In this document: positions 1,050 through 13,345 of the stretch, one piece after another
How positions within the stretch are numbered: position 1 is the first letter of the stretch
Layout: every line of letters starts with the position of its first letter
Origin: Candidatus Acidiferrales bacterium
Lineage (GTDB): Bacteria > Acidobacteriota > Terriglobia > Acidiferrales > UBA7541
Reading direction: 5' to 3'
NCBI GenBank assembly: GCA_035933995.1
Contig: DASYYI010000387.1
Span: forward strand, 2,962 to 26,961
Length of the DNA stretch: 24,000 nt
Notes under the pieces: generated by a model
Database searches by the model: none
What the model was told of the DNA's origin: nothing
The model's input: the letters and a program-made list of their open reading frames with translations, nothing else
Position numbers and translations under genes: made by a program

Positions 1050-1414
1050 CGCTCACCTCGCAAGGATTTAGTCTTTACACGAGCAGAGATCGACAGACAA
1101 AGCCCTAAGAACGCGTACTCTGTTGTCCAAGTCCTGAATCACCCAAGTCTAGGAAAGTCGCTGCCAAAATCGCTGCAGGCCAAATACCACATTTCGAATG
1201 TATCTGCAAGTTAAATATAAGATGCATGAAATACGAGATTTAAATTTGCATTCTGCCAATGAGGTCAAGCTCTCCAATCGCCACCGCATACGACAAATCA
1301 TATTGTTCTACGCTAAATGGAAATTGTCCGAGGATTTGACGTCCCGCCTTGGCGAGTTTGGTTGGCACACGAAAGACAAGACGACTTCGGGCGGGAATTC
1401 GCCTGTCGGGGAAC

Positions 1415-2149
1415 TCAATAGGCAAGCTGGCCGTTAATTAGCATCTTGCTGGGCTTGAATTCGATATAAGCCCGTTGGGCGACCAGGGTCCCGATCGCCG
1501 GGCTCATGAATTGAAACGCAAACGATTTGTCTCCCGACTTGATGAATGACGCACCGTTCACCTTGCGAGCGAAAATGAATTCAACGGCTGTTTGCCCTCC
1601 TGGGGCGACCTCCATGCGCGCGGGAACTAGTTTTTGTCCATTGGGTCCGATCAGGTAAGTTTGCATTGGTACAACCCCTGGGGGAAAGGACTGCCAGTAT
1701 TGCATCATATCTCGTTCGTACAGTGTGACGTTTGATCCGTAATCGAGATGGACGACGATGTCATCGTCGTAGTTTCTCGTCAGAAAGCCTTTCACGGAAT
1801 CATCGAACGCCTTTTTGTGGCTAGCGTCCATTCGGTCATACTTGTTCTGTATCTGTGCTTGACGAGCGACTGCCTCGCGGACTGGCAGCGCCGAGCGGAG
1901 CTGCACCAAGTAGTAGATCTCCGGCACCTGTTCTCGTCCTGTACCATCGCTTGGCTGGCCCATCGGGGTCTCTACCATCCCTGTATTGCTCCAGGTTTGC
2001 GCCCAGGGGGAGTTCTGCAACATATTTCGGCAATCGTTGCTCGACCATTGTTGCCAGGGCTTCTTCGTCCAGTACCCTTGCCCTTTAGCGGTAGTTGCCG
2101 ACAGCGCGGTCGCAACCACACCTACCACCAATATGGTCCGGGCATGCAT
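1415..2149 (-). CDS. secreted protein of unknown function
   Basis: 244-aa ORF. The N-terminus MHARTILVVGVVATALSATTAKGQ looks like a signal peptide. It is Trp-rich after the cleavage site (KKPWQQWSSNDCRNMLQNSPWAQTW). I do not recognise a family. It lies upstream of the TonB receptor gene on the same strand. Confidence 0.6.
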   Translation of the reverse strand: MHARTILVVGVVATALSATTAKGQGYWTKKPWQQWSSNDCRNMLQNSPWAQTWSNTGMVETPMGQPSDGTGREQVPEIYYLVQLRSALPVREAVARQAQIQNKYDRMDASHKKAFDDSVKGFLTRNYDDDIVVHLDYGSNVTLYERDMMQYWQSFPPGVVPMQTYLIGPNGQKLVPARMEVAPGGQTAVEFIFARKVNGASFIKSGDKSFAFQFMSPAIGTLVAQRAYIEFKPSKMLINGQLAY

Positions 2150-2265
2150 CGTGACCTCCTTCGGAGTTTGAATTAAGCTGAGATTCCGGTCGGCCGGAAA
2201 CCCGAGTTAGACTCGAACGAAACATCATCGCTCAAAATCGTTGAGAGCAAACCACGCGAAAAAGC

Positions 2266-2313
2266 TGGCGCGCCGGAAGAGGACTGACCTTCACCCCTCA
2301 ATCTGCGCAGAAG
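2266..2313 (-). repeat. decayed second copy of the tRNA-Arg 3'-half / att-like repeat
   Basis: The plus strand reads TGGCGCGCCGGAAGAGGACTGACCTTCACCCCTCAATCTGCGCAGAAG. By eye it aligns with 2809-2853 (TGGCGCGCCCGGAGGGACTCGAACCCCCGACCCTCTGCTTAGAAG) over most positions with a few indels. Both copies are followed by GTAC. The T-loop is destroyed, so it is not a functional tRNA. Confidence 0.3.
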
Positions 2314-2518
2314 TGTACATGATTCCCCGCCACTGCGCTGCCGATTTCCCTTTCTCGGAACGAGAGGAACGTCTGGAATCACAATAATCGTCGAGGAATC
2401 GTTCGCCGCGAAACACACTTTGGGGCAGTACAGCCATTGGGTTGTTTCGTTCGGCGGAATATGGGTGAAGGCTGGCCTGATGGAGTTTTTGTACTACGGT
2501 GTGTGAGAGAGTTTATAG

Positions 2519-2764
2519 CACATCGACTATCCCTTCCACGACAAAACCATCGTCGTCACCCGTTGCGGGCGCATCTGTCTAGGCAAGAAAAAAATAAACT
2601 TCAGCACCGTCTTTGCCGGTCAAGCCGTCGGCATCAAAGAAGTCCGCGACGATATCTGGCTGGTCAGCTTTATGCAGTATGATCTGGGGTACTTCGATCT
2701 GGGGACTCGGGTACTCGAGCCAATCGAAAATCCCTTCGGTCCAAAAGTGTTACCCATGTCTTAG
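2519..2764 (+). pseudogene. C-terminal fragment (about 81 codons) of an rve/DDE integrase-core transposase (IS481/IS3-like); 5' part missing
   Basis: Hand translation in the frame of 2522 gives IDYPFHDKTIVVTRCGRICLGKKKINFSTVFAGQAVGIKEVRDDIWLVSFMQYDLGYFDLGTRVLEPIENPFGPKVLPMS, ending at stop 2762-2764. I recall this C-terminal signature (YP.HD...VT.CGRIC...KI..S..FAGQ.VG..EV.D.IW.VSFM.YDLG.FD) from IS481-type transposases. In-frame stops at 2504 and 2516 and the absence of any catalytic core upstream show it is truncated. Confidence 0.6.
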
Positions 2765-2808
2765 GTACGTTGTGTCACCCATGTCTCCGGGCCGGACCCA
2801 ATGAGGAA

Positions 2809-2853
2809 TGGCGCGCCCGGAGGGACTCGAACCCCCGACCCTCTGCTTAGAAG
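2809..2853 (-). tRNA. 3' fragment of tRNA-Arg(UCU), from anticodon loop to CCA; not a complete gene and probably an att-site remnant
   Basis: The minus strand reads CTTCTAA GCAGA GGGTC GGGGG TTCGAGT CCCTC CGGGCGC G CCA. These parts are the anticodon loop with UCU, the 3' anticodon stem, the variable loop, the T arm with a TTCGAGT loop, the 3' acceptor strand, the discriminator and CCA. The sequence 5' of the loop (..AATGCGTAC) cannot pair with GCAGA. No GCGCCCG acceptor 5' strand or D arm is present upstream. Confidence 0.7.
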
Positions 2854-3135
2854 GTACGCATTACAAAACTCTAAGTGCCGCTTCTGGTGTCGCTTACGGG
2901 GAAGCGCGTCATTTATCTCGCCCTTGAACTGGACCGAAGTTGGACTGAAACTTCTGCTGACTTGCGCTTGAATTCAGACTGCTTCGAAGGGCCATACCTT
3001 CCTTTACTTCAGAGTGCGCCGTCCTGGAGCAATCACTCGGCCCGCGCGGAGACGAATTACTGACGTAATGTAATGGACCCATCCCGGTTCCTGCAACAAG
3101 CGATCAGCTTGGCCGCAGTCCGGGGAGGGACTTCC

Positions 3136-3204
3136 ATGCAAGTTGTGACGATCGGTCTGGATATCGCCAATCATATGGATGAGCACGGACGGCACCCCTC
3201 CTAA
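3136..3204 (+). pseudogene. possible N-terminal stub of an IS110-family transposase
   Basis: A 22-codon ORF encodes MQVVTIGLDIANHMDEHGRHPS. The VTIGLDIA start resembles the conserved IS110 N-terminus (V.IGIDLAK..FQVHG). It stops after 22 codons. This is a short match and weak evidence. Confidence 0.3.
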
Positions 3205-3374
3205 CAATCGTGTCTGCTGCTGCTAAATTCACCCGGCAAAGAATGACACCGCCCATTCGACTTCGCGTTCTTGGCGATTGAACATCAAGCAATGCATTGC
3301 CTTGGCATCTGACAATTGTTGGAGGAAGCTCAGGGTGTTTGGGTAGTACGCGTTGCTCATTTCTCGTTTGCTAT

Positions 3375-3403
3375 GTGCACCGCCGTGGTGTACGGTGGTG
3401 CAC
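3375..3403. promoter_or_regulatory. imperfect inverted repeat upstream of the first RHH gene (candidate operator)
   Basis: The sequence is GTGCACCGCCGT ggtgt ACGGTGGTGCAC, with 11 of 12 arm positions complementary. It lies 59-87 nt upstream of ATG 3462. It contains CACCGCCGTGGTG, which resembles CACCGCTATGGTG upstream of the second RHH gene. TGCTATGTG sits immediately 5' (3370-3378). Confidence 0.35.
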
Positions 3404-3461
3404 AAAAGGAATTAGCGTGCCGAGCAAGAAAACAGGAGGAGCCAAATCGAGGGAAGCAGCT

Positions 3462-3620
3462 ATGCCGCGCGCCTCGGTGAGCTTTCCTCCTGAAGTATAC
3501 AAGACTCTCGAAAATCTTGCGAAGAAGAAAAAAGTCTCGATTGCTTGGATCGTGCGCGAGGCCGTCGAAAAGTACGTCGCTGACCAATGGCCGCTGTTTG
3601 GTAATTTGAAGGGAAACTAA
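3462..3620 (+). CDS. ribbon-helix-helix (CopG/Arc-type) DNA-binding protein, candidate controller of the methyltransferase operon
   Basis: This is the internal ATG of ORF 3297..3620, preceded by GAGGGAAGCAGCT. It encodes 52 aa: MPRASVSFPPEVYKTLENLAKKKKVSIAWIVREAVEKYVADQWPLFGNLKGN. The pattern of a beta-strand (SVSFP) followed by two helices is typical of RHH proteins. The stop TAA is directly followed by the ATG of the next gene. A paralogue is at 7891..8061. Confidence 0.75.
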   Translation: MPRASVSFPPEVYKTLENLAKKKKVSIAWIVREAVEKYVADQWPLFGNLKGN

Positions 3621-4856
3621 ATGAAGTCTGCGATCAAAGCCCGTCTCGAAGAATGTCCAGAGGCAAAGCGCTTCGATGCTGCGCGATTGCATCATGTCGA
3701 CTTCGACTTCACCGACAGCAAGACCGGCTATCTGACACACGGGCTCCACCCGTATCCCGCAAAATTCATTCCGCAGATTCCCGACACCCTCATCCGGGAG
3801 CTGTCGAATGAGGGTGACACGGTAGCCGATGTGTTCTGCGGAAGCGGGACGACGTTGGTCGAGGCGCTTGTACTCAACCGCAATGCCATCGGCTTTGATG
3901 CTAACCCGCTGGCTTGTCTCATCACGAAGGCAAAGACGACACGGTTTGCTCCTGGAGACAAGTCGTCGCTTTTGTCGCTAGCGCGGAGGGCAGGCGAAAC
4001 GGGAGATGCGATAGTGAATGCCGGAAAGACACTCTTCCACCCTTCCGGCGCGTTTACGTCCTCGGCTTGGCGGCCAGATGCGCACGCGCTGACTTTTTGG
4101 TTTGAGCCGCTCGTCATCGAGGAACTTGCGGAAATCCTTTCATGGTGCGAGGCTCTGCCCTCAGAGTCGGCTCGAACCGTCGCACTCGTGGCGTTCTCAT
4201 CGATCATCGTTACGGTCTCTAAGCAGGATTCCGACACAAGGTATGTACGACGCCAAAAGGACGTAGCGCCTGGCGAAACGATGGCACGGTTTGCCCGCGC
4301 GCTTAAGTCCGCACTCACCGCCGTCGATGAGTTCGGCAACCAGGTCCGGTCGGACTTAAGCTGCGAAGTGATCCACGCCAATATTCTTGAGCAGCCGCAA
4401 AGCTCGCCCTTTGACCTGATGGTGTGCTCGCCGCCTTACCCGAATGCGTTCAGCTATCATCTCTACCACATGACCCGCATGGTATGGCTAGGAATGGACC
4501 AGCCGAAATTCAAACGGGAAGAGATTGGTAGTCACCGCAAGTACAGTGCCAAGGGTCTAAATGGGGCAACGGCCCAGACATTCCAGAAAGAAATGCAAAC
4601 CATCTTCTCTTGGCTTCATGTTCATCTGAAGACTGGAGGCTTTACTTGCTTTGTGGTCGGGGATTCCACGATCCGGGGCGAGCTTATCAACAACGCCGAT
4701 CTGATCGCTGCGGCAGGCCTCGTCGAAGGCTTCACTGAGATTGCCCGCCCCACACGGCGTCTTCAAATGACCAAGAAAGCATTCAACCCTGTGATCGGCA
4801 AAATCAAAGACGAGAAGATCATCATCCTTCAGAAGGATAGGGGGGCAGACAGATGA
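3621..4856 (+). CDS. DNA methyltransferase (N4-cytosine or N6-adenine; SPPY catalytic motif), first of a pair
   Basis: 411-aa ORF. It carries HPYPAKFIPQIP, AdoMet motif I VFCGSGTT (aa 71-78) and motif IV CSPPYPNAF (aa 269-277). The order is motif I, then about 190 aa, then motif IV. The 3' end overlaps the next start (ATGA at 4853-4856). Confidence 0.9.
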   Translation: MKSAIKARLEECPEAKRFDAARLHHVDFDFTDSKTGYLTHGLHPYPAKFIPQIPDTLIRELSNEGDTVADVFCGSGTTLVEALVLNRNAIGFDANPLACLITKAKTTRFAPGDKSSLLSLARRAGETGDAIVNAGKTLFHPSGAFTSSAWRPDAHALTFWFEPLVIEELAEILSWCEALPSESARTVALVAFSSIIVTVSKQDSDTRYVRRQKDVAPGETMARFARALKSALTAVDEFGNQVRSDLSCEVIHANILEQPQSSPFDLMVCSPPYPNAFSYHLYHMTRMVWLGMDQPKFKREEIGSHRKYSAKGLNGATAQTFQKEMQTIFSWLHVHLKTGGFTCFVVGDSTIRGELINNADLIAAAGLVEGFTEIARPTRRLQMTKKAFNPVIGKIKDEKIIILQKDRGADR

Positions 4857-6454
4857 AGCAGCAATGCGTATGCCGGATGAAACCCTACATCCAGCCCTTC
4901 GAGCGAACGCTGGCAGTGGCCGAACTCAGCGCCATTGCGCGCACAAAGCCGATTGCGGTTGACAGGACAGAAGAGCCGGTTCTTTTTTCATTGCCGATGG
5001 CGACGAAGGCAGATGCACTGGTGCGGCATTTGGCTTATTGGGAAGTCGTAGAAACAAATAAGCCGTGTTTTACTACCCAGGTATTACGGGAGCGTACCGT
5101 CAATGTGGTCCGCAACGGTGTACCTCCCAAAGACATCCCGCAATTGTTGAAGGACGACATCGTGCTCCCTAATCGTCGCTGCCTGCGCTATGGGACGCAC
5201 GGCATACACGAGTATCGCGGCAAATTCTTCCCTCAGCTTGTCCGATCCTTGATCAATATTGCCGATGTGCCTAAGCGGGGAATCGTAGCAGACCCGATGT
5301 GCGGTAGCGGCACCACCGATGTGGAAGCTGTACTCGGGGAGTATCGCGCCCTGGGGCTTGATATGAACCCATTGTCGGTTCTGATGGCGCACAACAAATG
5401 TGCGCTGCTGTCCGTCGCACCCGAACTGCTGAACTCGAGCTATGAAGCAATCCGCGACAAGCTGATCCGGCCATCCAGCAAACGGAACGGCAAACTCACT
5501 TATTTTGCTTCGCTGCCCGCTCGCGATCAGGAATACCTGTCGGGATGGTTTTCCGAGCAGGTGCTGCAGGATTTGGATGAGGTCGCCCGAACCATAGAGC
5601 AATCAGACAAACGGGTCCGCGATTTCTTCCGGCTCTCCCTCAGCAACATCATTCGCAGCGTCTCGTGGCAAAAAGATGACGATTTGCGTGTCCGTAAGGA
5701 ACTCCGACTCGACGCTGAAATCGATCCTATCCGTGAATTTCTGGAAGAGCTGGGCCGCTCGGTGCGCGTCGTGCTCGCTTTCCTATACCACAACCGGGAA
5801 ACACAGTTTGGACCGTTTGATATTGCCGAAGGCGATGCGCGGGACTTGGCGACGGCGTGGAGCAAGTGGAGAGACAAAATCGACACCATCATCACATCGC
5901 CACCCTATGCCACCGCCTTGCCGTATCTGGACACGGATCGGTTGAGCCTCTCGTATCTTGGCTTGTTGCCGCGCCCCGAGCACCGGCACCTAGATCAGCA
6001 CATGATAGGCAACCGGGAGATTAGTGAAAAGCAGCGGTCAATGTACTGGAGAATCTTTGAGAGCAAGAAGAAGAAATTACCGAAGTCCGTATCAGTGCTA
6101 ATTCAGAAGGTCGATGCACTGAATTCCAAAATCGAGGTTGGCTTCCGCCGCCGTAATCTCCCCGCGTTGCTGACAAAATACTTCCTGGACATGCAGCAGG
6201 TGTTCGAGGGAATGAAAGCGGTACTGCGGCCCGGTTGTCCGGCCTACGTAGTGGTAGGCAACAATCACACAATCGCGGGCGGCGAGAGGGTCGAAATCGA
6301 GACCGCCAGCCTGCTGGTGGAAATTGCGGCGGCGGTCGGAATGAAGTCCGAGCGTCGTATTCCGATGGAGATGCTCGTCTCCCGCGACATCTTCAAGAAG
6401 AACGCGGTCGCTTCGGAAGAAATCCTCTGCTTCAGAACACCTTCTCAGAAGTAG
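4853..6454 (+). CDS. DNA methyltransferase (SPPY catalytic motif), second of a pair
   Basis: 533-aa ORF. It carries YRGKFFPQLV, motif I DPMCGSGTT (aa 147-155) and motif IV ITSPPYATALPY (aa 347-358). It has the same I-to-IV architecture as the upstream gene plus an extra N-terminal domain of about 110 aa. It is translationally coupled to the upstream gene. Its 3' end overlaps the convergent nuclease gene by 10 nt. Confidence 0.9.
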   Translation: MKQQCVCRMKPYIQPFERTLAVAELSAIARTKPIAVDRTEEPVLFSLPMATKADALVRHLAYWEVVETNKPCFTTQVLRERTVNVVRNGVPPKDIPQLLKDDIVLPNRRCLRYGTHGIHEYRGKFFPQLVRSLINIADVPKRGIVADPMCGSGTTDVEAVLGEYRALGLDMNPLSVLMAHNKCALLSVAPELLNSSYEAIRDKLIRPSSKRNGKLTYFASLPARDQEYLSGWFSEQVLQDLDEVARTIEQSDKRVRDFFRLSLSNIIRSVSWQKDDDLRVRKELRLDAEIDPIREFLEELGRSVRVVLAFLYHNRETQFGPFDIAEGDARDLATAWSKWRDKIDTIITSPPYATALPYLDTDRLSLSYLGLLPRPEHRHLDQHMIGNREISEKQRSMYWRIFESKKKKLPKSVSVLIQKVDALNSKIEVGFRRRNLPALLTKYFLDMQQVFEGMKAVLRPGCPAYVVVGNNHTIAGGERVEIETASLLVEIAAAVGMKSERRIPMEMLVSRDIFKKNAVASEEILCFRTPSQK

Positions 6455-7734
6455 CCGAAACGCTTCTGCGAGTGCGGCACCTCCGTATTGCAGAACGGCG
6501 CGAGCTGCTCAAACAGCGGCGAGCCTTGCGGTGCCACCTGGATGTCGTATTCAAAGCCGTTCACCGGATCGACGCGTCGAACGAAGAGAATATCACCAGG
6601 GTACCCAGAACTGCGTAAGACTTCGTTGCGAATCCGAAAATCACCCTTATCCGGGTTGAAGAACATCGCCACGGACTGAACCGTGCCAATGCGCATCGGC
6701 ACGTGCGCACGGTCCATTTTGCCGAGACCATTACGCCTCTTCTTGGGGTTGCGGTTATTCCACGCGATATCGGCGGTGAATTGATTCGGGAAGGTCCAGA
6801 AGTCGGGATTTTGGTCGATAGCTGCCAGCGGTATGAAAACTTCCGGTGATCTGCGGGATGTCCCTCGCGTTGTCTGACCCACACCTACGTCCGTGTTTTG
6901 CAAGGTCATCACGAAGCAACTGACGCCGCCAACTTGTGCTGGCACGATGCCAGGTGGCGGGAGCACGGTGACAGCGGGCAATTCTGCGGCTTCCGCCTCG
7001 CCTTCCGCCTCGATTGGCTCCACTTCCGCTCTGGCGATAGCCGGTGGCCGAGGAACGCCGACCGTGATGAAGAGCGGGGGAGGGGGAACGGGTTGCTCAC
7101 CGGCATTTGCTGCACCCCCTGCTGGAGGCACTGTCGGTTGCGGTGCAGGAGTCCGCGCCTGCTGTGCGGCTGCCAATTCGGCTTCACTGCGCACAAGTCC
7201 AGACGCGACGAGCCGGTCTATGAATTCTGCCGTGAGCACATAGCAAACACCTTGCTGCGGCTGGGCCCATTGATCCAGCGTCGCTTCGATGACTTGCAGA
7301 AACGCTGCATCCTCCGGCACGGCTAGGTCCAGCGAAACGGCAAGGGACGCTTCGTAGTTGGTAAACAATCCCCCGCCTGTCAGATTGCCGGACCCGACAA
7401 GGACATCGGCATGCTCCGCCGACTTGAAGACATAGACCTTCGGGTGAAACGTGTAGGGGCCGTTATTCCGGTAGATGAGAATCTGCCCAGGCCGCGTTAC
7501 ATCCAGGAGATCGTTCAATCCCTCTCTGGAGGTGCCGTACAAATCGACGCCCACGGAAATCAGGACATCCGACCTGGCGCTGAAGTCTCGAAGCAGCTCA
7601 CGAATGTACTGTGTGCCGGAGCGCTTCACGAATGCGATAGCAGCTCGGAAAGTCGCCCATTGCGGATCGGCGAGGTGGTTGCGAAGAAATTCTCCCAACC
7701 GCACGTCTCCGAATGGCTGCGTAATGAATTGCAT
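6445..7734 (-). CDS. PLD-superfamily nuclease, BfiI/NgoFVII-like restriction endonuclease candidate (N-terminal HKD nuclease, Pro/Ala/Glu linker, C-terminal putative DNA-recognition domain)
   Basis: 429-aa ORF. It has a single HKD-type motif, TFHPKVYVFKSAEHADVLVGSGNLTGGGL (H97, K99, GSGN 114-117). A low-complexity linker spans about aa 186-266 (ARTPAPQPTVPPAGG..PVPPPP..EAEGEAEAAELP). The C-terminal domain begins CFVMTLQNTDVGVG...SPEVFIPLAAI, which resembles the first strands of B3/EcoRII-N-type pseudobarrels. The gene is convergent with two methyltransferase genes. Confidence 0.85.
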   Translation of the reverse strand: MQFITQPFGDVRLGEFLRNHLADPQWATFRAAIAFVKRSGTQYIRELLRDFSARSDVLISVGVDLYGTSREGLNDLLDVTRPGQILIYRNNGPYTFHPKVYVFKSAEHADVLVGSGNLTGGGLFTNYEASLAVSLDLAVPEDAAFLQVIEATLDQWAQPQQGVCYVLTAEFIDRLVASGLVRSEAELAAAQQARTPAPQPTVPPAGGAANAGEQPVPPPPLFITVGVPRPPAIARAEVEPIEAEGEAEAAELPAVTVLPPPGIVPAQVGGVSCFVMTLQNTDVGVGQTTRGTSRRSPEVFIPLAAIDQNPDFWTFPNQFTADIAWNNRNPKKRRNGLGKMDRAHVPMRIGTVQSVAMFFNPDKGDFRIRNEVLRSSGYPGDILFVRRVDPVNGFEYDIQVAPQGSPLFEQLAPFCNTEVPHSQKRFGYF

Positions 7735-7805
7735 GACAGGAGAGAATCATACTAGCAAGATTGGTCAACCTGCACGCAGGCTATACGGAAGGTTGCCTTC
7801 CATGC

Positions 7806-7839
7806 AATTCACCGCTATGGTGAATTGTGGTGCTATACT
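7806..7839 (+). promoter_or_regulatory. perfect inverted repeat plus an extended -10-like element in the nuclease/RHH divergent region
   Basis: AATTCACC gctat GGTGAATT (7806-7826) has perfect 8-bp arms. It is followed by TGcTATACT (7831-7839), which is TG-n-TATACT and therefore extended -10-like. It sits between the nuclease start (7734, minus strand) and the RHH2 start (7858/7891, plus strand). Confidence 0.35.
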
Positions 7840-7890
7840 CCAGCAAGCGAGCAGGCCGTGACCAGAGGCGCTAAGCGAAAAGAAAAATTC

Positions 7891-8061
7891 GTGTCGACCG
7901 AGAGTCCGTCCATTCGCGCGACCATCAGCTTTCCGCCTGATCTTTACCAATCTCTCGAAGGGATAGCACAGCAGAAAAAGGTTTCGCTTGCCTGGGTCGT
8001 TCGCGAGGCTGCGGAACAGTACATCGCGGACAAATGGCCGCTCTTCAAAGGTAAGGTGTGA
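7891..8061 (+). CDS. ribbon-helix-helix (CopG/Arc-type) DNA-binding protein, paralogue of 3462..3620, first gene of the Argonaute operon
   Basis: This is part of ORF 7825..8061 and encodes ..SIRATISFPPDLYQSLEGIAQQKKVSLAWVVREAAEQYIADKWPLFKGKV. My hand alignment to the first RHH gives 27 identical of 43 aligned positions, and most other positions are conservative. The start is ambiguous: in-frame GTG at 7891 or 7858, or ATG at 7825. I prefer a GTG because 7825 lies inside the inverted repeat and upstream of the -10-like box. Confidence 0.7.
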   Translation: MSTESPSIRATISFPPDLYQSLEGIAQQKKVSLAWVVREAAEQYIADKWPLFKGKV

Positions 8062-8105
8062 CCATGCCTTTGGCGGCGCAGGAGACTTATTTTTAGAACG
8101 TTTCA

Positions 8106-10070
8106 ATGGCCAATCAACAGACAACGCTTGGCGCTGGAAAAGACGATTACCACATCCACCTCAACTTCTTGCCGGTTGAGACGGGTGGTGCGCATTTTGT
8201 TATTTACCGTTGCAAATGCGCGTCTCCGCAGGAGCAGCGCCCGACCCCGCTGGCAAGCGCTCACAAGCTTCCGGCAACCTCCGCGGACGAAAAAGACTGG
8301 CAGTCCTACTGGGTGATTCCCGAAGCGGCGGAGGGTTTTGAAGCGTTTGATTTCCAACCGGAATGGAACGCCGACATAACGCGAAGGATCATGTTCGGAT
8401 GCCTGAGACAGTCCGTGGTGTCCCGGTTGAAAACCACGGAGTATCGCTTCCCGGAGAACAGCTTCATTGAGGAAGTCTCGTTCGTTATGCAGACGCATCA
8501 AGAGGGGGAGGAGGAACTTGTAGTGCAGCCCTACTCCCTCAAAGCAACCCGCCAGACGGGCTTCCTCGTCGATTTTCACTTCAGGCTCGGCAAGAACGTT
8601 CCATTCAGCCGGAAAATCCAGCAACTCAGCCTGAGCCTCGACAAGAACTTCCGGCGAAATGTCGATTATTACGTTGATCGATCCTCGAAGATTCGACGCT
8701 TCCTCGAAAGGAGATGGCCGGTCTTCGAGGGAATGACGCTGCCCGGCGGTTCCGCGCCGCTGCGGACATCCAAGGAATTTGTGGCGCTGCCGGCGGAGCG
8801 GCTTCGCCCGAAAGTCTATGTATTCTCCGGCGACAAGGAATCCAAGAGCCAGTTCACGGGCCTGCGCGACTTTGGGCCTCTCCAGCCGCTCGACAAACCT
8901 CCCCGGTTGCTTTTCGTATTTCGGGAACAGGACAGGCAAGCGGCGCGACGCCTCGCTCTTTCCCTAAAGGGATTGAAACAGCGCGGCCAGTTTAATTTTC
9001 CGGGCTTCAAGGATCTGTTTAAGACCGCTTTGGACATCGACGCGGACCCGGTAGTTCTTCCCGATCTCAGCGACAAATCGATGGAATCCGCGCTGAAGCG
9101 CGCGGAGACCGTCCGAAAGGATTCGCCCCGAGTTCTGCCCGTCATTGTTCTGCCGAACAACGAGGACAATGGCTACCTTGCTCAGAAGGCGCATTTTTCG
9201 CACGCGGGCATGCCCACACAGGTCTGCACGCTGCGAATTCTGGAGGACGAGGAATCGTTGAAATGGGCAATCGGAAACCTCGCGCTACAGATATTCTGCA
9301 AGGCGGGCGGAAAACCCTGGAAAGTTCGTCCCACGGCCGAGCATTCCCTCATCATCGGCATCAGCCAGTCCCACAAGTGCCGGGTGATCGACAAGCAAGT
9401 GCATGTCGATAAATATTTTGCGTTCTCCGTCCTGACCGACAGCAGCGGCTTGTTCCAGCAGATTCAGGTGCTGGGGGATTCCGAGGATCACTCCACCTAC
9501 ATCAGCGCGCTTCGCGCCAATTTGAAAAAAGTCCTGGAGGAAAACGCGGGCGCGTTCAATCGCGTCGTCATCCATACCTCCTTCAAGCTCAGGCACGAGG
9601 AGATCAAAGCCATACAGCAAACCGCCCACGATGTCGCCACCGCCACGGATCGCGCCAAATGCAGGTTCTCCGTCATCAAGGTGAACCATAAGAGCCGGTT
9701 CTTCGGCATCAACCGCTCCGTCAACAGCCTCGTGCCCTTCGAGGCGACGAAGGTTCGGCTCAGTTCCAGCGAACACCTTCTGTGGTTTGAAGGCATCTAC
9801 CCGGATAAGCCGAACGTGACCAAGGCTTTTCCCGGCCCCACGCATCTCCAATTTCTTCGCGTGAACGACGATGCGGCCGAGCCCGCCGAGCAGCGCGAGC
9901 TATTGCAGGATTTGGTGAATCTTTCCGGGGCCAATTGGCGGGGATTCAACGCCAAGAGCGCTCCCGTATCCGTTTTCTATTGTCATCTGGTCGCCGATCT
10001 TGTTCATGATTTCCATGAGCGAGGACTTCCGATGCCAGCCGTGCAAGACATTCGGCCTTGGTTCCTGTGA
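8106..10070 (+). CDS. prokaryotic Argonaute (pAgo), catalytically inactive PIWI, MID with YKQK-type 5'-end pocket, short N-terminal region with no obvious PAZ
   Basis: 654-aa ORF. MID motifs: NGYLAQKAHFSHAGMPTQVCTL (Y357, K361, Q372) and LALQIFCKAGGKPWKV (K399). PIWI motifs: SLIIGISQSH where slicers have GxDV (S420), and RVVIHTSFKL where slicers have HRDG (S492). The C-terminal APVSVFYCHLVADLV is typical of a PIWI end. Only about 265 aa precede the MID Rossmann start (PRLLFVFREQD). The upstream frame is closed by TAG at 8094, so ATG 8106 is the start. Confidence 0.9.
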   Translation: MANQQTTLGAGKDDYHIHLNFLPVETGGAHFVIYRCKCASPQEQRPTPLASAHKLPATSADEKDWQSYWVIPEAAEGFEAFDFQPEWNADITRRIMFGCLRQSVVSRLKTTEYRFPENSFIEEVSFVMQTHQEGEEELVVQPYSLKATRQTGFLVDFHFRLGKNVPFSRKIQQLSLSLDKNFRRNVDYYVDRSSKIRRFLERRWPVFEGMTLPGGSAPLRTSKEFVALPAERLRPKVYVFSGDKESKSQFTGLRDFGPLQPLDKPPRLLFVFREQDRQAARRLALSLKGLKQRGQFNFPGFKDLFKTALDIDADPVVLPDLSDKSMESALKRAETVRKDSPRVLPVIVLPNNEDNGYLAQKAHFSHAGMPTQVCTLRILEDEESLKWAIGNLALQIFCKAGGKPWKVRPTAEHSLIIGISQSHKCRVIDKQVHVDKYFAFSVLTDSSGLFQQIQVLGDSEDHSTYISALRANLKKVLEENAGAFNRVVIHTSFKLRHEEIKAIQQTAHDVATATDRAKCRFSVIKVNHKSRFFGINRSVNSLVPFEATKVRLSSSEHLLWFEGIYPDKPNVTKAFPGPTHLQFLRVNDDAAEPAEQRELLQDLVNLSGANWRGFNAKSAPVSVFYCHLVADLVHDFHERGLPMPAVQDIRPWFL

Positions 10071-10076
10071 GCTACT

Positions 10077-11162
10077 ATGACGAGCCGCTCTAAAGACATC
10101 ATCTTTCTACTTGGCGCGGGGGCAAGCGCCGAGGCGGGCATCCCCGTTTCCGGCGAGATGATCAATCTGGTGGAAAAGTCGCTTAAGGCGGGCACGGAGC
10201 AGGGCCTGTACCATCACGTCAAAAGCGCCATTCATTTTTCTGCGGGACTCAAAGGCCGCTTTGGCAACGCGGTTCCGTTCAACATCGAGACGCTGGTAAA
10301 CACTTTGTATGAGCTGGAGCGAAACGAAGAACATCCCTTGTATCCGTTCATTGCGGCGTGGAGTTCCCGGTTTGTCGCTCTCGCGGGGCCGGACTTCGGC
10401 GAAGTGCGTCGCTTCCGGCAGCGCATCCTCGCGGACTTAAAGAAATGGATGTGTCCCGAGGACTCGGCCAAAGCCGATTACTACCGGGGCCTGATCGCGC
10501 TCCAGCGCGACCTCAACTATCCTTTGCACGTTTTCTCTTTGAATTACGATCTCTGCGTTGAAGGTCTGAATACTTCGGAGTTTCGCGTCGAAACAGGCTT
10601 CGCCAACTTTGGCCCCAGCCACTCCTGGGACTGGGAGCGTTTCGTGGACATGGAAACCAGCAACAATATCGCTCCGCAGCTTGTCCTCTATAAGCTGCAC
10701 GGGTCCATCAACTGGAAGCGAAGCCCCGAAACCAAAGAGCTATTCTGCGTGCAGCAAATCGAGAGCGTCGATGCGGAAAAAATGGAAGTCATCTTCGGAC
10801 GCGAGTTCAAGCTGGAAGCCGCAGACCCGTATCTGTTCTTCGCGTACAAATTCCGGGATCTGTCACTGGTGACGAAGCTCATCGTCACCTTGGGATACGG
10901 GTTCGGCGACGTGCACATCAATAAGATGCTGACGCAAAGTCTACGCACCGATTCAGAGCGCCGCCTCCTCGCAATTCAGGGCTGCGAGGAAAAAGATTGC
11001 GTCAAGAAAGCTAATGAAATCGAGGGACTTCTGGAGCTCGGTGATGACCGGACGTACCAAGTGATTGTTCAACCAGGCTCGGCAAAACAATTCCTGGAAA
11101 CTCCGAAACTGAACGAGCAGCTTGTAAAGTTAATTCCGCCGAGCAAAGACGTTCCGTTCTGA
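10077..11162 (+). CDS. SIR2-like (SIR2_2 type) protein, putative NAD+-consuming effector
   Basis: 361-aa ORF starting 6 nt after the pAgo stop. Motifs: IIFLLGAGASAEAGIP (Rossmann NAD motif, aa 8-23), FSLNYD (N156, D158), LYKLHGSINW (H208) and TLGYGFGD. It is too short to include an APAZ-type adaptor as well. Confidence 0.85.
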   Translation: MTSRSKDIIFLLGAGASAEAGIPVSGEMINLVEKSLKAGTEQGLYHHVKSAIHFSAGLKGRFGNAVPFNIETLVNTLYELERNEEHPLYPFIAAWSSRFVALAGPDFGEVRRFRQRILADLKKWMCPEDSAKADYYRGLIALQRDLNYPLHVFSLNYDLCVEGLNTSEFRVETGFANFGPSHSWDWERFVDMETSNNIAPQLVLYKLHGSINWKRSPETKELFCVQQIESVDAEKMEVIFGREFKLEAADPYLFFAYKFRDLSLVTKLIVTLGYGFGDVHINKMLTQSLRTDSERRLLAIQGCEEKDCVKKANEIEGLLELGDDRTYQVIVQPGSAKQFLETPKLNEQLVKLIPPSKDVPF

Positions 11163-11358
11163 TCCCCAGTTGCGTTCACACATCCCTTACTTGAAAACTC
11201 GTGACGCCGTGGAAGGTCTTGTGGGGGTGGTGGAGAGCCGCTACGATTTGGGAATGTTGAAGTCGGCCTGCGTAGGGTCGAGGACTGGTGCGTCACTCCG
11301 CAGATTCGGCACATGCAATGACCGAATCGGAAGCTCGTTGCCAGCCCCCGCCACCTCA

Positions 11359-11391
11359 AACCGAGCGTGCAGATTTCCCGCACTCGGCTTA
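11359..11391 (-). ncRNA. group II intron domain V (catalytic hairpin)
   Basis: The minus strand reads AAGCCGAGUGC GGGAAAUCU GCACGCUCGGUUU. It has the AGC triad at the base, a helix of AAGCCGAG with CUCGGUUU, and a 2-nt bulge on the 3' strand. Length and shape are canonical. It lies about 20 nt downstream of the RT/maturase stop. Confidence 0.75.
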
Positions 11392-11413
11392 CCTGTCGGC
11401 TTCCCGTCGAGGG

Positions 11414-12729
11414 TTATGAGACCGTGGCTGATCGAAGGGCCTGTGTGGGAAACCAAGGCCGTCGAACGCGGTAATCATCAAAGAGTCCGAGTTGACGACA
11501 CAGCTCGCGTCCATCCATTCGCTTCCAGCCAAAACCTTGACGTTTCCGTGCCCGCATCAGATGCCGCCTAATCTTCTTGTCTATCCAGTCGCGGACAAAA
11601 GCAAAGCACCGACTCGAATGGCCTGCAGGAAAGTAGTTCACCCAACCTCGCAGAATCGGGTTGATACGTGCGACCACCCTTGCCACGGGTTGACTGACGT
11701 GCTGCTGGAAGATCTCCCTGAGCTTTGCCAGCAGTGCCGTTCGCTTTTTCAGCTTCGGCACTAACTGAGGCCGCCACACTTTGTTCCGACTCAAAACGTG
11801 ACGATACTCAAAGCCCAAGAATGAGAAACACTCTCCCTTGGCCAGATCGATAGTTCGGCTCTTCTCTTCATTGACCTCAACTCGGAGTTTCGCCAACTCC
11901 TCCCGCAGTCGCCTTTCCACCGCCCTCACTAGCCAGTCATGCCGCCGTTGCCGTCCACCAGGATCACCAGATCGTCCGCGTATCTCGCATACTGAACGTT
12001 GGTGTATTTGCCCCGCCGCGTGGTTGCAATCGCCTTTTCCAGCATTCGGTCGACCTCATTGAGATAGACGTTGCTGAGCAGAGGCGAGACAACTCCGCCT
12101 TGCGGGACTCCCTTCTTCTCAGTGGATTTCAAGATCATCTTGAGCAGCTTCATCACCGCATCATCCTGTATCCTCCCCGCTACCTTTTCCATCAGCAGAG
12201 CGTGCTGAACGTTGTCAAAGTAGGCGCGCAGGTCGATGTCGATGACGCGAGTCATGCACTGAACGATCGCCCGTTCTACACGGCCCACGGCCTGATGCGC
12301 TGTCCGTTTGGGCCGATATCCATACGATCCCGGTTGGAAGTCAGCTTCGAAGATCGGCTCCAGAATGAGCTTGAGTGCTCCCTGGACCACACGGTCGCGG
12401 ATAGAGGGAATCGAGAGAACACGGACTTTGCCGCCGTCCTTCGGTATTTCCTTCTTCCGCACCCGCATGGGCCGATACGTGTTTGAGACCAGTTCGTCTC
12501 TGATCCTCTGAAGGAACGTCTCCAGTCCGCTTTCTTCGATAGCGTCGAAGGTAACTCCGTCGATTCCCGGAGCACCGTCATTGTGTTTCGCCATCTGGTA
12601 GGCTTCGTGAATTGTTTCCATCTTGCAGATATGGACGTACAGTCCCCAGAAACGCCAGGCAGGTTCAGCCTTCGCCTTGACGTATAGGCTCCTCCTCAGG
12701 TTCTGCAAACTGATAGGCGTGTTTGTCAT
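11414..12729 (-). pseudogene. group II intron reverse transcriptase/maturase (IEP), split by a frameshift near 11945-11960
   Basis: ORF 11929..12729 encodes ..GAPGIDGVTF..LSIPSIRDRVVQGALKLILEPIFEADF..GYRPKRTAHQA..IDLRAYFDNV..GVPQGGVVSPLLSNVYLNEVD..YARYADDLVILVDGNGGMTG followed by a stop. The homologous continuation RQRRHDWLVRAVERRLREELAKLRVEVNEEKSRTIDLAKGECFSFLGFEY..RINPILRGWVNYF is in another frame (ORF 11414..11929). Together they make about 437 aa of RT plus X/maturase, with no HNH endonuclease domain. A single-base indel or a sequencing error explains the split. Confidence 0.85.
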
Positions 12730-13345
12730 CCGCCCTTGCCTCCCTTTTGTCAGAGCCGTTACCTACAGCAGGGCTCCTTTGCTCGACGGGAATTACCCCG
12801 CTTCGTCGCTACTACGAGCCCCTCCGTCACCCTCTCGTCGTCTGCCGATTTCCCGTGTCCCAGTTATACGGCTTCCTGCTCCGCCGATTGCTCGGCGGGA
12901 AGAGGAGGGTTTCTCCAGTTGCTCAATGCGTCCTTGTCATCGTGCTGTCGCTAGTACCCCGCCGGAGTGGTCCGTCGCTTCAGTCAGTCCGCGACGCTCC
13001 ATGCTGCCTTCACCCTGCTAGCAAGGGCTCGGCCTCCAGGGCGTCCGTTTTCGAGGCTACATTCGCGTTCACGTAAGTTACGGCCCGATGACTCGCTCAC
13101 CATCCTGAAGATGGCTTTGTCGATAGGCTTCAGAGATTCAATTTCTTTCCTCCCTGCTATCCAAGCTACGAGGCTCTGACTTTTGCCTCGGCGAGTTTAC
13201 CTCCCACTGAACACATCAGCATTTTCTGGACACGCGCTAGCACACGGCTGCGCCAGTCGCAAACCTCTCTCCTGTCACACCCGTTGCCATCCGCTCCAGC
13301 CTCCTAATGCGCTGCATCTTTCCGTTCCTCCTGTGGGCGCGGCGC

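Follow-up and report, generated by a model that had tools for sequence, protein, structure and literature searches.

When an Argonaute gene is followed directly by a SIR2 gene and the two products share no covalent link, the question arises whether the locus has split its domains in a new way or belongs to a kind of system already described. The locus considered here lies in a 24,000-nt stretch of Candidatus Acidiferrales DNA (contig DASYYI010000387.1), hereafter the window, and an initial sequence-only reading had favored a non-canonical domain split and a new variant. A 654-aa ORF (8106..10070, plus strand), assigned below to a catalytically inactive, BPAS-type long-B prokaryotic Argonaute (Ago), is followed on the same strand, after 6 nt, by a 361-aa ORF (10077..11162) for a stand-alone SIR2_2 NADase effector of the bAgaS type; coordinates, lengths and spacing agree with those of the initial reading. 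Both ORFs are full length, with neither internal stops nor frameshifts. A small RHH-like ORF of 78 aa (7825..8061, plus strand) is located 44 nt upstream of Ago, and a group II intron is found roughly 100 nt downstream of the operon. A scan for promoters and terminators around the operon gave no signal above shuffle expectation. Judged from its sequence, the locus reads as an intact two-gene defence system, in which a non-cutting Argonaute sensor precedes a SIR2 predicted to destroy NAD+.

Ago residues 347-635 match the Pfam Piwi domain (E=8e-15). Alignment with homologues and Piwi proteins places a MID 5'-end binding pocket at Y357, K361, Q372 and K399 (9174..9302, plus strand). These four residues, invariant among 34 homologues, correspond in alignment to the Y..K..Q..K residues that form the pocket in Ephydatia Piwi-A and Siwi, in keeping with the Y-K-Q-K type originally proposed; the MID of a Granulicella rosea homologue has been typed as 'YK' (Ryazansky 2018 Table S1). 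The first and third slicer positions of PIWI (9363..9581, plus strand) are both serine. S420 (codon 9363-9365) sits opposite the catalytic Asp of the GxDV strand, reading 'sliigiSqsh' against 'cmvvgiDvyh' and 'lmvvgyDvch' in the active Piwi-A and Siwi. S492 (codon 9579-9581) ends strand 486-491 of the AF2 model, which is the site of the RDG Asp in active Agos. When the stretch surrounding S492 was searched against the PDB, it aligned only with 'LHVSG' of AfAgo, and because this sole match is itself inactive, the assignment of S492 to the third Asp rests on strand position and motif. Both serines are invariant in the homologue alignment, and GxD[VI] was found in this region in none of 73 full-length family representatives. 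The fourth tetrad position may keep its His (H627), a hint that comes only from a weak hhalign match of the family profile to human AGO2 PIWI (an approximate query), which covered the C-terminal half alone (E=0.069). The expectation that serines at two slicer Asp positions preclude target cleavage is thereby upheld, and Ago is predicted to be catalytically dead, with no DEDX tetrad.

The N-terminal lobe (aa 1-265; 8106..8900, plus strand) was analyzed with AF2 models, Foldseek and profile searches, which point to N, L1 and L2 and to the lack of a canonical PAZ. The first MID strand of the AF2 model spans 267-273, leaving ~265 aa before MID. Models of the lobe had a pLDDT of about 77, and a PAZ fold was absent from the Ago models. 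In the Foldseek search proposed for aa 1-265, the isolated lobe best matched (TMq 0.35-0.42) the PAZ-free, N-L1-L2-like APAZ modules of SPARTA, SPARDA and SPARSA, at E=2e-4 to 1e-3, together with the RsAgo N-lobe, at TMq 0.41. For some 110 RsAgo residues, as estimated from alignment lengths, the window's Ago has no equivalent. The short lobe is clade-wide: an exhaustive profile search returned full-length relatives of 611-652 aa, with the lobe occurring only at their extreme N-terminus and with no N-terminal effector domain attached to it. The window's Ago additionally carries a 14-residue disordered N-terminal tail. Taken together, the missing PAZ fold and a lobe sized like PAZ-free N-L1-L2/APAZ modules support the description of this Ago as lacking a canonical PAZ. 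The one caveat is that the Ryazansky 2018 census annotates aa 98-155 of the G. rosea protein, which is 76% identical, as a 'small' PAZ*. Offsets in the PADLOC HMMs are compatible with a hairpin vestige of PAZ, and profile comparisons of the lobe were not significant, either with the single EcAgo sequence (hhalign-type profile alignment, E=0.2) or with a 24-sequence BPAN N-lobe profile (E=0.07; nonsense in global mode). The hairpin at 124-145 would be either L1 or a PAZ* vestige, these two placements being incompatible.

The APAZ matches bear on a possible short-pAgo origin, in which a short pAgo joined to APAZ, of the kind seen in single-chain SIR2-APAZ-pAgo proteins, would have lost its own effector and now work with an unlinked SIR2. 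Although the APAZ modules of short systems are the top matches of the isolated lobe, APAZ corresponds structurally to N-L1-L2 (PMC10954474), so that this likeness does not discriminate, and the RsAgo lobe matches equally well. The sequence affinities of MID-PIWI are with long-B proteins instead. The closest PDB sequences to Ago are AfAgo (6.5e-19), EcAgo (1e-10) and RsAgo (3e-8), all long-B; AfAgo is the nearest solved MID-PIWI by sequence and reaches 2e-24 with the family profile, while the top fold match of the Ago model is the long-B RsAgo (TMq 0.68). Ago matches the PADLOC model pAgo_II (PDLC02381) at E=4.3e-214, with aa 15-654 aligned to positions 2-617 of 617, whereas the class I (short) models reach only about 1e-12. 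The G. rosea homologue was listed as 'longB' in 2018 and falls within long-B in the published tree (Ryazansky 2018 and its Table S1). A short system pairs a MID-PIWI-only Ago with an effector-APAZ fusion; here, the Ago bears the ~265-aa lobe, the SIR2 has no APAZ, and no relative of the lobe carries an N-terminal effector. The SIR2 is moreover of the SIR2_2 type, in contrast to the SIR2_1 type of SIR2-APAZ proteins. A short-pAgo origin is thus very improbable. Of the two readings first offered, a long-B/SIR2 variant or an APAZ-Ago fusion, the former stands, as BPAS. The latter was rejected on the long-B affinities of MID-PIWI and the equivalence of APAZ with N-L1-L2, which leaves it no real distinction. 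On PDB sequence and fold matches and the G. rosea listing, we place the window's Ago in the long-B clade.

The downstream protein matches Pfam SIR2_2 over aa 151-305 and, over its full length, the PADLOC model Aga_SIR2 (PDLC02408, Class II; E=5.2e-123); generic PADLOC SIR2 models are far weaker (E=7e-24). G13-S17 (GAGAS), N156, D158 and H208 do not vary among the aligned SIR2 proteins, of which the experimentally tested GbbAgaS is one. No APAZ-type (PNTD) model extends over the SIR2, and composite models match only its first ~30 residues, i.e. the GAGAS segment. The protein thus fits its initial description as a 361-aa SIR2_2 without APAZ and appears to be a bare effector. It ends in a tail, P354...D358-x-P360-F361-COOH (11136..11159, plus strand), that is unchanged in 9 sequences, among them GbbAgaS with its overall identity of 39%.

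Long-B pAgo/SIR2 pairs form a clade that was named BPAS by Song et al. 2023 (PMC10620215), and single-chain long-B pAgos that are PAZ-less or retain a PAZ remnant, with a downstream ThsA-like Sir2, were described in 2024. The tested representative, GbBPAS (GbAgo, HAG96803; GbbAgaS, HAG96802), has the same gene order as the window, Ago then SIR2_2, and the top PADLOC models of its two proteins are identical to those of the window's Ago and SIR2. In a comparison covering the first 393 aa of GbAgo, residues 3-389 are collinear with residues 17-409 of the window's Ago (27% identity over this N-half, E=3e-45), and the equally short GbAgo lobe aligns from the first strand of the window's Ago. GbbAgaS and the window's SIR2 have the same length and 37% identity end to end (E=1e-67), and share GAGAS, LNYDL (N155/N156), YKLHGSI and the C-terminal DxPF; the mutated N155 of GbbAgaS lies opposite N156. 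GbBPAS differs in belonging, at these modest identities, to another subclade, from Gammaproteobacteria rather than Acidobacteriota, and the window adds the upstream RHH-like gene and the disordered Ago tail. The two genes thus very probably constitute a BPAS system, judging by sequence. The window's Ago nests among long-B pAgo-SIR2 operons of a characterized type whose layout is the same, with a short N-lobe throughout the clade, and the notion of a non-canonical split is not supported by this comparison. Since BPAS is already catalogued and experimentally tested, the locus adds an example to a known kind of system. No solved structure of a BPAS Ago or BPAS SIR2 was present in the PDB copy searched.

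Other systems share parts of this plan. The EcBPAN/RsAgo type (PDB 23wq, 5awh) resembles the window in its inactive PIWI, YK-type MID and downstream effector gene, but its effector is a PD-(D/E)XK nuclease and not a SIR2. EcAgo (731 aa) has a ~60-residue hairpin PAZ at 155-218, matches a separate PADLOC model of 724 positions rather than 617, and forms no stable complex with its effector, unlike GbBPAS. fAfAgo (AfAgo plus AfAgo-N; PDB 8ok9; PMC10954474) likewise combines N-L1-L2 with MID-PIWI in the absence of PAZ and has a downstream effector gene; its N-lobe, however, is a separate polypeptide, whereas the window's Ago is one chain, and its effector is an alpha-helical fusion protein of the Af1317 type in place of a Sir2. 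SPARSA follows the same logic, with an inactive Ago that senses a guide/target duplex and turns on a SIR2 NADase, and its APAZ fold is resembled by the window's N-lobe. The SPARSA effector is a SIR2_1-type protein covalently joined to APAZ, its gene lies upstream of the Ago gene, and the partner Ago consists of MID-PIWI alone; in the window, it is the Ago that bears the N-lobe, and an unattached SIR2_2 is encoded downstream of it.

The pairing itself could be questioned, with Ago acting alone in RsAgo-like plasmid silencing and SIR2 serving as an independent Thoeris-like or stand-alone NADase. Stand-alone SIR2 defence proteins do exist, the generic PADLOC SIR2 models do match, and in heterologous hosts RsAgo causes plasmid interference. 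Such uncoupled neighbors are nonetheless highly unlikely given the 6-nt gap on a common strand, the conservation of the pair across phyla, and the dedicated Ago-associated SIR2 model, which scores far above the generic ones. SIR2 directly follows Ago in 8 of 11 genome loci; these come from Acidobacteriota, Deltaproteobacteria, Phycisphaerales and Entotheonella, with about 6-16 nt between the two genes. The literature also argues for coupling: og_44 Sir2 proteins have been reported to co-evolve with their pAgos, and in GbBPAS, Ago and SIR2 co-purify as a complex and regulate one another, the SIR2 being toxic alone and the Ago suppressing this toxicity (PMC10620215).

An RHH-Ago-SIR2 order had also been suggested for survey, and its Ago-SIR2 part is the more widely kept. 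An RHH homologue occurs in 6 of the 11 loci, all from Acidobacteriota; it adjoins Ago in three and lies about 2.5 kb away in the other three. In one locus (L001), a Vsr/Dcm/REase module separates the RHH gene from Ago. The ORF itself matches Pfam RHH_5 and RHH_1 at E about 5e-4, under the curated cut-offs. An integral third component was rejected on this restricted occurrence and the intervening R-M module; the RHH-like gene is a lineage-restricted neighbor, probably a regulator outside the core.

Some related loci have decayed, from which it follows that a BPAS-type system is dispensable: in L011, an insertion divides Ago and SIR2 is truncated, and in L005-7, Ago is cut short and SIR2 is missing. 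Together with the nearby group II intron, these loci would favor a reading of the window's operon as a decaying or silent defence-island remnant that has lost its function. Its two uninterrupted, full-length ORFs and the integrity of every family-invariant residue make this very improbable.

For the BPAS system, the most likely function by analogy is guide-directed sensing of invader DNA leading to NAD+ depletion and abortive infection. This agrees with the function first predicted and with experiments on GbBPAS, in which plasmid triggers an NAD+ loss that is abolished by N155A (PMC10620215); the activity shown there was against plasmid in E. coli, not phage. We hypothesize that the non-cutting Ago retains its 5'-phosphate guide pocket and, through the N-L1-L2 lobe with MID-PIWI, a duplex channel. 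It would load small guides, most likely 5'-phosphorylated RNAs by analogy with other inactive pAgos, and base-pair with invader DNA, e.g. a multicopy plasmid, as the presumed trigger in the native Acidobacteriota host. Until then, Ago would bind the downstream SIR2_2 protein and keep it off, as reported for GbBPAS. Target binding would change the conformation of Ago, speculatively by way of a PIWI 'beta-relay' and sensor loops, and the NADase, thus freed or activated, would deplete NAD+ and lead to death or growth stop of the infected cell.

The coupling interface, including the coupling step, is conjectural, and two clade-invariant elements for which no description was found in the literature consulted are candidates. 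One is Ago segment aa 162-191 (FSRKIQQLSLSLDKNFRRNVDYYVDR; 8589..8678, plus strand), near the L1/L2 junction, which has 8 invariant residues in the homologue alignment and contains the N-lobe's best-conserved 20-mer (aa 172-191, 0.866). GbAgo carries the version 'QRLSLSLDAKYRQN', and the segment is modelled with low pLDDT in full-length Ago. The other is the DxPF tail of the SIR2. It is a tentative and rather doubtful proposal that SLSLD...RRN...D in Ago and the IP...DxPF tail couple the proteins as a tether-free docking or autoinhibition interface. If true, such an interface would stand in for the APAZ fusion through which short pAgo systems link effector and sensor covalently. One form it might take is a tail lodged in the nucleic-acid channel of Ago until displaced by a guide/target duplex.

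The locus yields no new architecture or mechanism, its layout being the family norm, and both genes are already recognized by existing defence-system annotation tools. It is a clean, intact BPAS example from Acidobacteriota. BPAS has only one tested representative, and diverse members will aid comparative and structural work on how Argonaute controls an untethered SIR2. One of the genomes surveyed (L008) carries a system of the SPARSA kind and one of the window's kind side by side.

The 654-aa Argonaute (Ago; 8106-10070, + strand) and the 361-aa SIR2 protein (10077-11162, + strand), separated by 6 nt as the sequence-only reading had stated, are assigned by homology to BPAS, a long-B pAgo with an associated Sir2. 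Song et al. 2023 (PMC10620215) coined this name for long-B pAgo operons in which the pAgo lies upstream and a SIR2_2 protein (orthogroup og_44) downstream, and tested one gammaproteobacterial example, GbBPAS, composed of GbAgo and GbbAgaS (sequences from their Supplementary Data 1). Our assignment is based on PADLOC models, homology to GbBPAS, long-B structure matches and the listing of a Granulicella rosea homologue as long-B. Two dedicated PADLOC-DB models cover the proteins along their full length: pAgo_II PDLC02381 for Ago (aa 15-654 aligned to model positions 2-617 of 617, E=4.3e-214) and Aga_SIR2 'Class II' PDLC02408 for SIR2 (1-361 aligned to 1-343 of 343, E=5.2e-123). The same models are matched by GbAgo (E=7.6e-111) and GbbAgaS (E=2.7e-120), whereas EcAgo, of the nuclease-associated BPAN type, matches another, longer model (PDLC02379, 724 positions). 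Ago 17-409 is collinear with GbAgo 3-389 without a large indel (27% identity, E=3e-45), a comparison resting on a 393-aa GbAgo sequence, and SIR2 is 37% identical to GbbAgaS over its whole length (E=1e-67). The best sequence matches of Ago among solved structures were all long-B (AfAgo, 6.5e-19; EcAgo, 1e-10; RsAgo, 3e-8), as were the best matches of a family-profile search of solved structures (again AfAgo, EcAgo and RsAgo), and RsAgo was the top fold match (TMq 0.68) for the AlphaFold model of Ago (pLDDT 77.8, pTM 0.73). The G. rosea protein WP_089408463.1 (654 aa), 76% identical to Ago, is listed as 'longB' with MID type YK (Ryazansky et al. 2018, Table S1). The locus thus carries all sequence-testable defining features of BPAS, and it lacks those defining short pAgos.

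By sequence, Ago combines a dead PIWI with an intact 5'-end pocket, as first proposed. The Piwi domain was found at aa 347-635 (Pfam, E=8e-15), and Y357, K361, Q372, K399, S420 and S492 are invariant across 34 aligned homologues (59-90% identity). When the MID-to-beta1 segment was searched against the PDB, the first four of these residues fell opposite the Y..K..Q..K pocket of two Piwi proteins, Ephydatia Piwi-A and silkworm Siwi, and S420 fell opposite the catalytic aspartate of their GxDV strand ('sliigiSqsh' against 'cmvvgiDvyh' and 'lmvvgyDvch'). In the AlphaFold model, S492 is found at the C-terminal end of strand 486-491, where active Argonautes have the RDG aspartate; this serine aligns opposite 'LHVSG' of AfAgo, which is likewise inactive. 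At the fourth tetrad position a histidine seems to be retained (H627, 9984-9986), although the two aspartate positions are serines: FYCHLVA, nearly invariant across the family, lies opposite YYAHLVA of human AGO2 in a weak hhalign alignment.

The N-terminal lobe (aa 1-265) had been read as apparently PAZ-less, with the question whether it is APAZ-like or N/L1/L2. No PAZ fold was seen in the Ago structure models, in agreement with the first point. In these models, residues 16-107 form six strands and one long helix; residues 124-161 form three long strands, followed by helices at 169-176 and 186-208 and by further strands, before the first MID strand at 267. When the lobe was modelled alone (pLDDT 77.2), its top fold matches were APAZ modules from SPARTA, SPARDA and SPARSA (TMq 0.35-0.42, E=2e-4 to 1e-3), whose 230-250 residues were covered almost completely; the RsAgo N-lobe matched equally well (TMq 0.41). 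APAZ is structurally equivalent to N-L1-L2 (PMC10954474), and therefore the two proposed readings are not real alternatives and give a single answer: as modelled, it is an N-L1-L2 lobe. From alignment lengths in the full-length fold comparison, we estimate that ~110 RsAgo residues are without counterpart in Ago. The 2018 pAgo census annotates a 'small PAZ' in the G. rosea homologue at residues corresponding to Ago aa 98-155 (8397-8570). Our structure model and its fold matches assign this stretch to the last part of the N domain and the L1 strands. The census may have misannotated the domain in this clade, or the hairpin could be a genuine remnant of PAZ.

The short N-lobe is shared across the clade and does not set this Ago apart. 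An exhaustive profile search with the lobe against 1.84 billion representatives returned 321 clusters, 127 of them at E<=1e-30. The 150 best of the 321 clusters included 73 full-length proteins (611-652 aa, median 636); the lobe lay at the extreme N-terminus as a single collinear stretch in all 73, with no longer protein or N-terminal effector among them. The proposed non-canonical domain split is not upheld, since GbBPAS, the tested system, and the whole clade share this layout. Single-chain long-B pAgos in which PAZ* is present, absent or reduced to a single helix, followed by a ThsA-like Sir2 gene, had already been described by Manakova et al. 2024, and a 2025 preprint restates them as background.

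By sequence, the SIR2 active site is intact. SIR2_2 was found at aa 151-305 (Pfam, E=3e-8), and G13-S17 (the GAGAS motif), N156, D158 and H208, noted at the outset, proved invariant across eight genome homologues and GbbAgaS, in which N155 lies opposite N156. In GbBPAS the two proteins co-purify. Sir2 by itself is toxic and depletes NAD+, and both effects are suppressed by Ago. Cell death and NAD+ loss are triggered by a CloDF13-origin plasmid, and the N155A mutant shows neither toxicity nor NAD+ loss (PMC10620215). The function first predicted here, NAD+ depletion or abortive infection, agrees with the accepted one. As with other inactive pAgos, Ago would load 5'-phosphorylated RNA guides against DNA targets, and a conformational change of Ago would activate SIR2; a PIWI beta-relay is the proposed, undemonstrated route in long-B systems (2025 preprint). 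A PDB search found no close solved structure for a BPAS Ago or Sir2.

Two conserved segments may be speculated to bear on how Ago is coupled to the untethered SIR2. Ago 162-191 (FSRKIQQLSLSLDKNFRRNVDYYVDR, 8589-8678) is as strongly conserved as the MID/PIWI core, has low confidence in the model of the whole protein, and is retained in the distant GbAgo by pairwise alignment. Within it, 172-191 (QQLSLSLDKNFRRNVDYYVD) scores highest in conservation among the 20-mers of the N-lobe (0.87, on a par with the MID/PIWI core). Of 73 diverse full-length family representatives, 50 carry an LS[LI][SGT]L motif. The other is the C-terminal tail of SIR2, IPxSxDxPF-COOH (aa 354-361; 11136-11159, + strand), whose P354, D358, P360 and F361 are invariant in 9/9 aligned Ago-associated SIR2 proteins, including GbbAgaS, whose overall identity in this alignment is 39%.

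Relatives are encoded at eleven genome loci, with 73-88% identity in Acidobacteriota and 56-62% in a deltaproteobacterium, a Phycisphaerales MAG and Entotheonella. SIR2 directly follows Ago in 8/11 loci, a tight and conserved linkage. The remaining loci and the Entotheonella locus are decayed copies. In three Terracidiphilus and Edaphobacter MAGs (L005-L007, 6001-7881) the Ago match stops at residue 586-623 and SIR2 was not found after it; in Entotheonella (L011, 3588-7870) an insertion bearing a 459-aa ORF on the opposite strand splits Ago into 300-aa and 369-aa ORFs, and SIR2 has a premature stop.

Homologues of the RHH-like ORF (7825-8061; Pfam RHH matches below cut-off) occurred in 6/11 loci, exclusively in Acidobacteriota, adjoining Ago in three and lying ~2.5 kb off in the other three. 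We rejected it as a core component, given this distribution and the restriction-modification-type module that separates it from Ago in one locus (L001, 3217-5970: a Vsr nicking endonuclease, a Dcm-type methyltransferase and a type II restriction enzyme). It is an optional neighbour and plausibly a regulator; it may lie outside the Ago operon, either marking the border of an island or controlling variable cargo.

The window looks like a defence island. Upstream of Ago, 3621-7734 is a putative restriction-modification-like module, composed of two methyltransferase ORFs overlapping at their junction (3621-4856 and 4853-6454, + strand) and a convergent 429-aa PLD-like restriction enzyme ORF (6445-7734, - strand; weak PLD/NgoFVII-like and type II REase matches) that overlaps the second by 10 nt. 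Downstream of SIR2 are another methyltransferase and a complete group II intron on the opposite strand (11272-13209, - strand; Rfam D1-D4 at 13073-13209, 113.9 bits; domain V/VI at 11272-11392, 41.7 bits), whose 3' end is ~100 nt from the SIR2 stop codon. Its encoded protein occupies two ORFs (RT, 11929-12729; maturase, 11414-11929), and their 1-nt overlap suggests a frameshift. In an Acidobacteriota MAG (L008), two Argonaute-SIR2 systems of different architecture are neighbours: ~730 nt upstream of the BPAS pair (5974-9027) lies a divergent, complete class I short-pAgo system (1205-5240, - strand) with an 849-aa SIR2-APAZ (PADLOC E=3.5e-288) and a 494-aa short pAgo (E=7e-135).
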